UHGV virus genome: UHGV-0074812
Source of the DNA: a virus
Reading direction: 5' to 3' (one strand)
Length of the DNA stretch: 29,386 bases
The notes under the pieces were generated by a model. That model worked only from the letters and a program-made list of their open reading frames with translations. It was not told where the DNA came from and ran no database searches. Both the position numbers and the translations under genes were made by a program. The number at the start of each line of letters is the position of its first letter. Within the stretch, counting starts at the first letter, position 1. Shown one piece after another: positions 23,137 to 25,530 of this stretch.

Positions 23137-25530
23137 TCATACGTCAGCCCCTTGCGCATATCGTCTGCCACGCGCAGCAGGTGCATTTGATGCTGTGCAA
23201 ATCAGTCTGGCTTCATCCTGGTCACATGCAACAAAGTGTCCGTTGCAGAACCGCTGGTAAACCGTACCAAGTGAGCCAAAACGGTTTTTCGTCACGATGA
23301 TTTCAGCAAATGGCGCGGCGCTACTGTTCTCGTCATATACCGCTTCCCGATAGAGCATGATGATTGAGTCTGCGTCCTGCTCAATGCTTCCTGAATCACG
23401 CAAATCTGCGTTTGTCGGGCGTTTGTTTGGTCGCTTCTCAACATCGCGCGAAAGCTGACTCAGGGAGATAACAGGCGTTTTCAGGTCTTTCGCCATCGCC
23501 TTAAGGCTTCCTGAGATGTGAGCAATTGCGAGGTCGTTGCGGTCTGCTTTCGGCTTCTCAATCAGGCCAAGATAATCCGCCATGATGAGTGACAGGTTTG
23601 GATTTTCCTGTTTGTGCCGTTCTGCGATTGAGCGTATTTCTTCGACCGATAACCGCGAGGCATCGACTACCCATACATCCAAATCTGCAAGCTGACTCAT
23701 GCCGTTAGCAACACGCGCCCAGCCTTCGTCATCCATCGATGCAGGATTTCGCAGTACGCTAACCGACATCCTCCCGGCGTTGGCAATGCTTCGCTCTGCA
23801 ATCTGCAATGCGCTCATTTCCATTGAGAAAATCAATACCCCGCGCCGGACGTCAGAACCAGGAATAACGCGGCTTGCAACGCCTTCGGCAATCTTCAGCG
23901 CCAGTTCCGTATTGTGCGTAACGATGTAATCCGTTGTCACATAGAGATGGCTAGGATGGCTTACCATGATGCAGAGACACTCTTCTGGCTCAACAACTTC
24001 AACCGATTTGATACCCACACCAAGGTCGCCAAGCCTGTTAATCCCGAGATTTTTGCGTAAACGTGGTGAGTGAATTTGCTCTATCAAAGATGATGGCAAC
24101 TTCATGCTGACCATGTGTGCATCAAGTCCGTCATGCTTCTCTCCTTTGTACGTGTAAACTATTCCCGTCCTGCTGGATTCTTTGGCGGTTCCACCTAAAG
24201 ATCTAACAAGCCTTACTAATCCTTTAGCTAATTTCTGACTGGATGAACTAAAGCGGATGCATCCGGACTTCTCAACCCAGCCATCTGTCTCGAGAAGGCC
24301 AGTTAAAACACCGGTACGTATTTCTTTGCTAGCACTAAAAATTTCTGCTGGGATTTCCTTCTCGGACGCACCTTTCCCGATCATCCCAATGCCACGTAGT
24401 TTGTCCAATAGTGGGTTCTTCTGGCCTTTTTGGTTGCTTATCAAATAATCATTCTCTCCTACCTTAACCAGTCGCAGTGGTGCAATTGCATCACTCATGC
24501 GGCTCAGGACATATTCTTCCGAGTTGGTGAATTTGATGCCTTTTATCAACGAACCGTCACCAAGTAGAGCCCCAATAACCCAACCATCAAGGGGAATATT
24601 TTTACCAAAGTCTCCGGTCAAGGATGGCACTCTTATTCTTCCCTGATAACGTGTTTTTTGTAGCATCCCAGCCAGCGCATCAGTATCAACAACGCGCTTA
24701 CCAGTAAATCTTGATGATGAAATTTCCCATAAGTGGTTGTCGGCACATTTCACGCTACGTCCGTCTTCAAAGGTGACTAAATATGTGAATTTCTTCCCTT
24801 GCGGGAAGACGCCAATTACCTCCGAAGGAAGCCCGTCTATTGACGCGATGCGATCGCCAATTTTGACTTCTCCGTGAGTAGTCCAGGTGCCATCTGCAAG
24901 TAAAATCCCTTCGCTTAGCGCCATTGCTTTCCCCATACCAGGACGAGCAGCGATAATCACCAGGTCTTCCGCGTTCATCCCTCCGGTGATGGCGTCAAGT
25001 TCTTCGATTCCGGTCTTCAGGGTATCTGACTCTTCTCCGTTCCTCAGACGCCTGTCAAGCGTGTCAGTGTAGTCAGTTATGATTTCCCCTAACCGTACAG
25101 GTTTAACCTCGTCACGGGGCTTTCTGATGGCTGAAAGACGTTTTACCAGTTCATCCATCGCCTGACTCGATGCGTCGATGGTTCCGCTCTGAATTGGTTC
25201 ACGCATTTCATCCATGATTTCCAGCACCAGACGGCGGTGATAGTTATCCGCGACCATTCCGGCATATCCCTTCAGGTTTGCGGCGCTCGGGCAGTTTTTG
25301 CTGGTCATCAGGATTGACGTGAAATGCTCCTCTCCGCACGCCTCGGCAACCATCAACGCGTCGATTAGGTTTCTGTTTCGCGCCTGCTTCCGGATAACTT
25401 CGAAGGCTTTCCGGTAGAGCGGAATTGAAAACGCTTCCGGCTCAAGCGTTGCCAGAACGTCACTGGCGGTTGGAGTTAATCCACCAATCAGCAGGCCACC
25501 GATAACGCTCGCTTCGATATCCTGTCTCAT
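23137..25530 (-). CDS. Replicative DnaB-family helicase interrupted by an in-frame intein (797-aa precursor; predicted mature helicase ~458 aa)
   Basis: DnaB N-terminal domain, P-loop ...[10 protein letters not shown] then ~339 aa of intein-like sequence, then [10 protein letters not shown]... and DnaB C-terminal motifs ([33 protein letters not shown]). Confidence 0.85.
23911..24927 (-). mobile_element. Intein with LAGLIDADG homing-endonuclease domain inserted in the helicase P-loop (residues ~202-540); candidate class 3 intein (Ala1, Trp in block B, Cys in block F, Thr-His-Asn at C-terminus, Thr +1)
   Basis: Block A-like [14 protein letters not shown]; block B ..KCADNHLW; two LAGLIDADG motifs ([11 protein letters not shown] and [11 protein letters not shown]); block F ..EECLCIMV..; block G ..YIVTHN followed by Thr; removing the segment restores a contiguous GMGK-T Walker A. 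Confidence 0.7.

Follow-up and report, generated by a model that had tools for sequence, protein, structure and literature searches.

The DNA analysed here, called the window throughout, is the whole 29,386-nt virus genome UHGV-0074812, which by its gene content is a P22-like lambdoid prophage of Escherichia coli. On its minus strand the window encodes a DnaB-type replicative helicase, and the subject of this work is a 339-amino-acid (aa) block within that helicase which very probably is a full-length intein of class 3 that encloses a LAGLIDADG homing endonuclease and is located at the P-loop site known as DnaB-b. The 2394-nt reading frame of the helicase is open throughout, without frameshift or stop, and is divided into the following parts:

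23137..25530, minus strand: precursor open reading frame, DnaB-type replicative helicase with intein, 797 aa, 87.0 kDa
24928..25530, minus strand: N-extein, aa 1-201, comprising the DnaB N-terminal domain and the start of the ATPase domain and ending in ...ARPGMGK (Lys-1)
23911..24927, minus strand: intein, precursor aa 202-540, 339 aa, 36.9 kDa, from Ala1 to Asn339, flanked by Lys-1 and Thr+1
23137..23910, minus strand: C-extein, aa 541-797 and the stop codon; its first residue, Thr+1, is the Walker A Thr, and the remainder is the DnaB_C ATPase domain
23908..23910, minus strand: Thr+1 codon, ACG

Alignment of the helicase gene with gene P of phage HK97 (1377 nt, 458 aa; flanks about 97% identical) contains a single in-frame gap of 1017 nt, which corresponds to window positions 24927..23911 on the minus strand and lies between the AAA (Lys) and AC(G/C) (Thr) codons of the Walker A motif GMGK|T. 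Its placement is unique, because the bases flanking each junction differ, and since the boundary is unambiguous, residue 1 of the intein is Ala. An earlier note on this DNA, made from the sequence alone, had proposed an intein over the interval 23911-24927, and this interval agrees with the alignment to the base. Its other statements on the insertion hold as well: the open reading frame exceeds a normal DnaB by about 340 aa (797 aa versus 458 aa for HK97 P, an insert of 339 aa), and the block is cleanly inserted between GMGK and T, with flanks that rejoin as in HK97. The rejoined exteins form a GMGK-T P-loop, the flank joint being identical to that of HK97, and the intein-free insertion site in gene P of HK97 and CUS-3 reads GGTATGGG(T/G)AAA|ACCGAACTGGCG. 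The insertion site is the classic DnaB-b point, between the Walker A Lys and Thr; the P-loop site between Lys and Ser/Thr is DnaB insertion point "b", and Kelley et al. (2016) describe it as a "classic" P-loop insertion. Domain models follow the same division: on the 797-aa protein, Pfam places the DnaB N-terminal domain at aa 3-95, LAGLIDADG_3 at aa 405-454 and two DnaB_C stretches, the best of them at aa 540-762; the NCBIfam DnaB models likewise match in two pieces.

Comparison with intein-free DnaB homologs, which the earlier note had suggested as a check, yielded a clean 339-aa insertion and many uninterrupted alleles. A megablast search of phage genomes matched the helicase gene in 158 records, 51 of which cover all 2394 nt (48 unannotated Stx2a phages, named for Shiga toxin (Stx), TL-2011a, and a few more). 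The other records (about 100) show 58% coverage over exactly 1377 nt of the target; these intein-free alleles include HK97, HK544, CUS-3, Stx2 phage 1717, and P22 with its relatives. The helicase family is present in 713 of 5,426 complete E. coli genomes, and only 24 of the 713 contain the full intein; it is missing from HK97, CUS-3, P22 and about 690 E. coli alleles. A chance resemblance is ruled out because the insert-free 1377-nt gene exists in about 100 phage records and in about 690 genomes of E. coli.

To describe the conservation of the insert, we searched a large protein collection with its 339 aa and obtained 87 relatives, 37 of which span both junctions. The counts given below refer to 38 sequences, i.e. 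the window intein and these 37 full-length homologs. All 37 homologs are inserted after a P-loop Lys or Arg (GK|T or GR|T) in DnaB helicases, PhoH, and other ATPases. The putative splicing residues of the window intein are as follows:

24889..24927, minus strand: N-terminal splicing block; residue 1 is Ala, non-nucleophilic (Ala in 34 of 38)
24721..24762, minus strand: splicing block B
24733..24735, minus strand: block B His65 (38 of 38)
24727..24729, minus strand: block B Trp67, two residues past His65, the W of the WCT triplet (38 of 38)
23935..23982, minus strand: splicing block F, which includes the aromatic residue Tyr329 (Tyr or Phe in 38 of 38)
23971..23973, minus strand: block F Cys319, the C of WCT and the predicted initiating nucleophile (38 of 38)
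23911..23931, minus strand: splicing block G, DYIVTHN, with Thr337 (the T of WCT), His338, and Asn339, which is predicted to cyclise (each 38 of 38)
23908..23910, minus strand: +1 residue, Thr (Thr in 36 of 38, Ser in 2 of 38)

Class 3 inteins are defined by a non-nucleophilic residue 1 and the WCT triplet at positions B:12, F:4, and G:5 (Tori et al. 2010). The window intein carries Ala1, Trp67, Cys319, Thr337, and Thr+1, and ends in His338-Asn339 followed by the Thr+1 nucleophile, as is characteristic of inteins. The HINT-like blocks and the two LAGLIDADG motifs quoted in the earlier note are all present, and the fit to class 3 that it had drawn from Ala1, the block B Trp, the block F Cys, and the block G Thr is conserved among the 38 sequences. 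One refinement concerns the block F motif ECLCIMV, which contains two Cys residues: the nucleophile position is the second of them, Cys319, and not its neighbour Cys317, which is Cys in only 16 of 38 sequences. Moreover, the window intein is in register with the MP-Be intein, the class 3 prototype, at P1, H65, W67, C320, T339-H340-N341, and T+1.

The middle part of the intein corresponds to the endonuclease, which has the following components:

24028..24630, minus strand: LAGLIDADG homing-endonuclease domain, within the HINT domain, at about intein aa 100-300
24547..24579, minus strand: LAGLIDADG motif 1, VIGALLGDGSL, with catalytic Asp124
24358..24360, minus strand: invariant Lys190
24274..24306, minus strand: LAGLIDADG motif 2, LTGLLETDGWV, with catalytic Asp215

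Asp124, Asp215, and Lys190 are kept in 37-38 of the 38 sequences, and the endonuclease looks intact in sequence. Of the two profile matches anticipated by the earlier note, that to endonuclease families was obtained, LAGLIDADG_3 and Hom_end both scoring above threshold on the intein alone (29.0 bits with a cut-off of 22.5, and 21.8 bits with a cut-off of 21.1, respectively), and that to HINT models was not, as these stayed below threshold. The fold was addressed by an AlphaFold2 model of the intein built from 53 sequences, with a mean predicted local distance difference test score (pLDDT) of 94.6 and a predicted template-modelling score (pTM) of 0.92. In a Foldseek search with this model, (i) both domains match PI-SceI (E=8e-18, template-modelling (TM) score 0.67), and also TliVMA and other intein endonucleases, (ii) the HINT part matches Msm DnaBi1 and Mch DnaB-1, both class 3 mini-inteins, with target TM scores of 0.72-0.82, and (iii) the middle part matches I-DmoI-type LAGLIDADG enzymes. 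A sequence search of the PDB with phmmer retrieved the gp41-1 helicase intein, the LAGLIDADG domain of PI-SceI, and the class 3 DnaB mini-inteins of M. smegmatis (6BS8) and M. chimaera (6RIX/6RIY).

The nucleotide changes differ between the intein and its host gene. The exteins and HK97 differ in 38 codons, 35 of the differences being synonymous and 3 non-synonymous; judged by these substitutions, the helicase exteins are under strong purifying selection, and the helicase would be workable only with a restored P-loop. This selection lends the predicted splicing indirect support. Within the intein, 4 synonymous and 2 non-synonymous changes were observed among carriers. Between three carriers, namely the window, TL-2011a, and E. 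coli MS20659, there are 1-7 differences in the 1017 nt of the intein and 25-29 in the 1377 nt of the exteins (Fisher p=6e-6 and 0.002). The latter range falls within that observed between carriers and intein-free alleles (22-38 differences). Since the exteins of the carriers are no closer mutually than to intein-free alleles, the intein is younger than the surrounding allelic diversity, and the near-identical intein copies in diverged exteins point indirectly to recent homing among the diverse helicase genes of lambdoid phages. All three carriers examined encode Thr+1 by ACG and all five intein-free alleles examined encode it by ACC, which is a small sample. The window's joined flanks are reproduced exactly by none of the intein-free alleles among the 5,426 E. 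coli genomes, the closest agreeing at 62 of 63 positions. The ACG codon (23908-23910) or the Gly-2 codon (24931-24933) may be a co-conversion marker or a change affecting recognition by the endonuclease.

Deposits of the exact 797-aa protein come from 66 E. coli contigs, under the name "DNA helicase" or "replicative DNA helicase"; its 90%-identity cluster also includes 797-aa proteins of several Salmonella serovars, and the same gene is present in Stx2a phages of the O121, O157, and O103 outbreak lineages. None of the 797-aa database entries is named as an intein. One pair of carriers comprises the O157:H7 strain TT12A, the apparent donor, and a lysogen designated "WG5::TT12A"; these strain names alone suggest that an intein-bearing phage is transferable to a laboratory strain, and no paper on phage transfer between TT12A and WG5::TT12A was found.

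Six further E. coli sequences gave partial megablast matches to the intein. They were considered as decayed inteins and rejected, as at least one of them, when checked, proved to be a 52-nt fragment at a prophage deletion scar. This fragment equals the 3' end of the intein (window 23911-23962) and occurs in E. coli Res13-Lact-ER02-39 and sister pig isolates (L008:2501-2552), where it is isolated, with a truncated DNA-transfer gene on one side and a cro-like regulator on the other. It marks a deletion scar in a degraded prophage that formerly carried the intein.

Based on the intact catalytic residues, the intein is apparently active, and we infer splicing, the order of its chemical steps, and the endonuclease activity from the class 3 pathway of MP-Be, Dra Snf2, and Msm DnaBi1, which the proposed steps follow. 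The 87-kDa precursor would be translated with a split P-loop and would neither bind nor hydrolyse ATP. The thiol of Cys319, helped by His65 and Trp67, would attack the peptide bond between Lys-1 and Ala1 and produce a branched intermediate with a thioester at block F, after which the N-extein would be transferred to the hydroxyl of Thr+1, cyclisation of Asn339 would free the intein, and an O-to-N acyl shift would restore GMGK-T in a 458-aa helicase essentially identical to HK97 P. The predicted products of the 87.0-kDa precursor are a 50.1-kDa helicase and a 36.9-kDa intein. The freed intein would then act as a site-specific endonuclease that cuts the intein-free helicase alleles of co-resident lambdoid phages, and repair would copy the intein into the cut alleles, i.e. 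accomplish homing. The orthologue of the helicase in P22 is gene 12 (84% nucleotide identity), an essential phage replication gene. Replication of the phage should therefore need splicing, insofar as the role of the P22 orthologue extends to the window.

Splicing might, in addition, be conditional. In a mycobacterial DnaB-b class 3 intein, oxidation or zinc was shown to trap the splicing reaction, and by analogy, the same agents could reversibly trap Cys319 in the window intein, with its Cys317-x-Cys319 pair and Cys61 beside block B; we regard this extension as unlikely. If true, it would constitute a post-translational, stress-sensitive gate on the replication of induced Stx2a-type and P22-like prophages, and in Stx2a carriers also on toxin gene dosage; the intein would then be more than a selfish passenger.

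Several observations weigh against a class 3 intein that is active and mobile. The Pfam HINT models remain sub-threshold both for the whole protein and for the intein alone (Hom_end_hint scores 18.6 bits with a cut-off of 32.1), so that the HINT assignment rests on homologs, on sequence matches to solved structures, and on the predicted fold. Residues 2-3 are Met-Ala, as opposed to Gln-Pro in the homolog family, and position 7 of block B is Ala62, where relatives have Cys, Ser, Thr, or Asp; in MP-Be this position is dispensable (Tori et al. 2010). The low divergence of the intein could partly come from recombination that shuffles flanks rather than from endonuclease-driven homing. Finally, RefSeq treats the intein-containing helicase gene as broken. 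The last point implies that the intein is dead or decaying, the helicase a pseudogene, and the prophage either defective or served by another helicase. In all complete E. coli carrier genomes the annotation pipeline fragments the gene and calls its N-terminal part a pseudogene, an inactive class 3 intein is documented elsewhere as a pseudogene (Arsp-FB24), and the atypical residues 2-3 and block B position 7 would suit a decaying element. Against decay stand the uninterrupted 2394-nt frame, the intactness of all splicing and endonuclease catalytic residues, the substitution counts (35 synonymous to 3 non-synonymous in the exteins compared with HK97, 4 to 2 in the intein among carriers), and the spread of the gene, which includes the exact protein on 66 E. 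coli contigs, cluster members in Salmonella serovars, and Stx2a phages of outbreak lineages. Altogether, we consider a dead intein very unlikely.

The remaining alternatives accept the insert and question how it acts. Splicing could proceed by a route other than class 3, for instance with Thr+1 attacking the N-terminal junction directly, as in class 2 inteins of the KlbA type, and with Cys319 in a structural or activating role. Ala1 is common to class 2 inteins, and position F:4 of class 1 inteins is coordinating and not nucleophilic. However, class 2 inteins are known only from archaeal KlbA, have Cys+1, and lack the WCT triplet, which is invariant across the homolog family of the window intein, with Thr (36 of 38) or Ser (2 of 38) at +1. 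In MP-Be, which is in register, the substitutions C320A and C320S abolish all splicing and cleavage (Tori et al. 2010), and a solved class 3 DnaB-b intein has the identical H65 and W67 numbering; a non-class 3 route thus appears extremely improbable. One could also view the insert as a free-standing homing endonuclease placed in frame without protein splicing, and either tolerated as an extra domain or removed as RNA, given that the only Pfam matches above threshold are to endonuclease families. This view is effectively refuted by the fold and the junction residues and retains a negligible probability: halves of a HINT domain matching solved inteins lie on both sides of the endonuclease domain, the splice-junction residues Ala1 and His-Asn/Thr are found exactly at the boundaries, and a P-loop split between Lys and Thr would be intolerable in a RecA-fold ATPase. 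Intron-like RNA features are not expected in an open in-frame insert, and no search for such features was made. A class 3 intein with a nested endonuclease remains by far the best account of the locus.

The annotation of the locus obscures this element. In RefSeq, the Prokaryotic Genome Annotation Pipeline (PGAP) renders the intact gene as 2-3 coding sequences in all 24 carriers (e.g. E. coli MS20659, L001:2227-4620): the N-terminal part is labelled "incomplete; missing C-terminus" (pseudogene), and the C-terminal coding sequence starts within the intein. GenBank names the full 797-aa protein only as "DNA helicase" or "hypothetical protein". The pipelines probably overlook the intein because the Pfam HINT models fail the threshold, and because the annotation is wrong or uninformative, intein-bearing prophages may be mis-scored as replication-defective. 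The finding corrects this systematic mis-annotation in RefSeq.

In terms of novelty, the intein is a real case of a well-known element, one that is new or at any rate had no annotation, its class having been known since 2009, and its class, site, and phage setting are unsurprising to specialists. We found no published description of this DnaB-type helicase intein, only one of the paralogous primase-helicase intein of phi24B and Min27, although an earlier listing in InBase or in a class 3 catalogue is possible. Its value lies in the clean pair of intein-plus and intein-minus alleles, with flanks 97-98% identical, in tractable coliphages (HK97, CUS-3, P22 relatives), which therefore offers a convenient E. 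coli system for the study of class 3 splicing and intein homing. In addition, replication of the Stx2a phages, and hence amplification of the toxin gene, would depend on protein splicing, which can be inhibited chemically.

The genes that surround the helicase comprise a CI-type repressor, cII, an O-like replication initiator, NinB, and an anti-repressor, together with genes for the large terminase, portal, coat, and DNA-transfer proteins. The tRNA scan of the window found none. The immediate upstream partner of the helicase is the initiator gene:

25527..26474, minus strand: O-like replication initiator

The O-like gene and the helicase gene share 4 nt (ATGA, 25527-25530), in which the stop codon of the former overlaps the start codon of the latter; this suggests that the initiator and the intein-containing helicase are translationally coupled. 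Inside the O-like gene, six overlapping repeats with a 12-nt period (CATCATGTGCGG-like) occupy window positions 25919-26070, in a region (25650-26100) where the GC skew reverses locally and the AT skew is strongly negative. These repeats are probably an iteron array of a replication origin located within the initiator gene, as in lambda.

Comparison with known inteins places the window element among several groups that share parts of its architecture. PI-SceI and other intein-borne LAGLIDADG enzymes (VMA, PI-PfuI) have the same endonuclease-in-HINT architecture, with two Asp and the Lys kept, and represent the best whole-model fold match; they differ in belonging to class 1 (Cys1; Asp or another residue at F:4), in their unrelated hosts, and in an identity of only 15%.

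The closest annotated relative is found in the primase-helicase (P) of the Stx phages phi24B, Min27, and Stx2a_F451; this intein is 50% identical along its full length and was noted but not tested by Smith et al. (2012). Both elements reside in a lambdoid replication protein, at the P-loop (GHGK|A...THN|T in the Stx phages), and share the block F motif ECLCIMV and the LAGLIDADG motifs. However, the host of the Stx phage intein is a TOPRIM primase with a gp4d-type helicase and not a helicase of the DnaB/P22 gp12 type, and the intein has 342 aa and starts with Ala-Cys-Pro, so that the two are paralogous and not the same allele. In Stx2a_F451 this intein has the following position:

L005:3001-4026: paralogous intein in gp36, the toprim primase-helicase of Stx2a_F451

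About 70% nucleotide identity over 173 nt was also detected in the toprim (primase-helicase) genes of 79 further complete E. coli genomes, which suggests that the paralogous intein is widespread. The two related inteins occupy two alternative replication modules of lambdoid Stx phages.

The class 3 prototype, MP-Be (Tori et al. 2010), is also full-length with a LAGLIDADG endonuclease and is of nearly the same size (341 versus 339 aa), and related mycobacteriophage terminase inteins are ~27-31% identical to the window intein by tblastn. The earlier note had traced the class 3 mechanism to a mycobacteriophage DnaB, and that name is indeed used in the literature; the intein with the N-extein VSQDQ and the C-extein TKNTF is, however, located in Bethlehem gp10, the terminase large subunit (L007:7260-9971), and bears the name TerL1-c in Kelley et al. 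(2016). Two other Bethlehem proteins were considered as the host and rejected: the DnaB-like helicase gp61 (273 aa) is without an intein, and gp51, annotated as "may contain intein", has a different, Cys1-type intein. MP-Be further differs from the window intein in having Pro1 and in residing in a poorly conserved helix of TerL.

DnaB is the commonest bacterial intein host, and the class 3 DnaB-b inteins are well characterised in mycobacteria, where the endonuclease has been lost. They include M. smegmatis DnaBi1 (6BS8), M. leprae DnaB, and M. chimaera DnaB-1 (6RIX). The features in common with the window intein are (i) the DnaB host, with the site after the Walker A Lys and the P-loop Ser/Thr as the +1 residue, and (ii) Ala1, His65, Trp67, the block F Cys, Thr-His-Asn, and the HINT fold. 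The mycobacterial elements have Ser rather than Thr at +1 and Asp rather than Ala at block B position 7, and the sequence match is weak, at E about 1e-5. They are endonuclease-free mini-inteins in the essential chromosomal dnaB of actinobacteria, whereas the window intein has an apparently intact LAGLIDADG endonuclease and resides in a phage-encoded helicase of Enterobacteriaceae. Because MP-Be is located in TerL and not in a P-loop, the window intein is closest, in mechanism and in position, to the P-loop class 3 inteins at DnaB-b.

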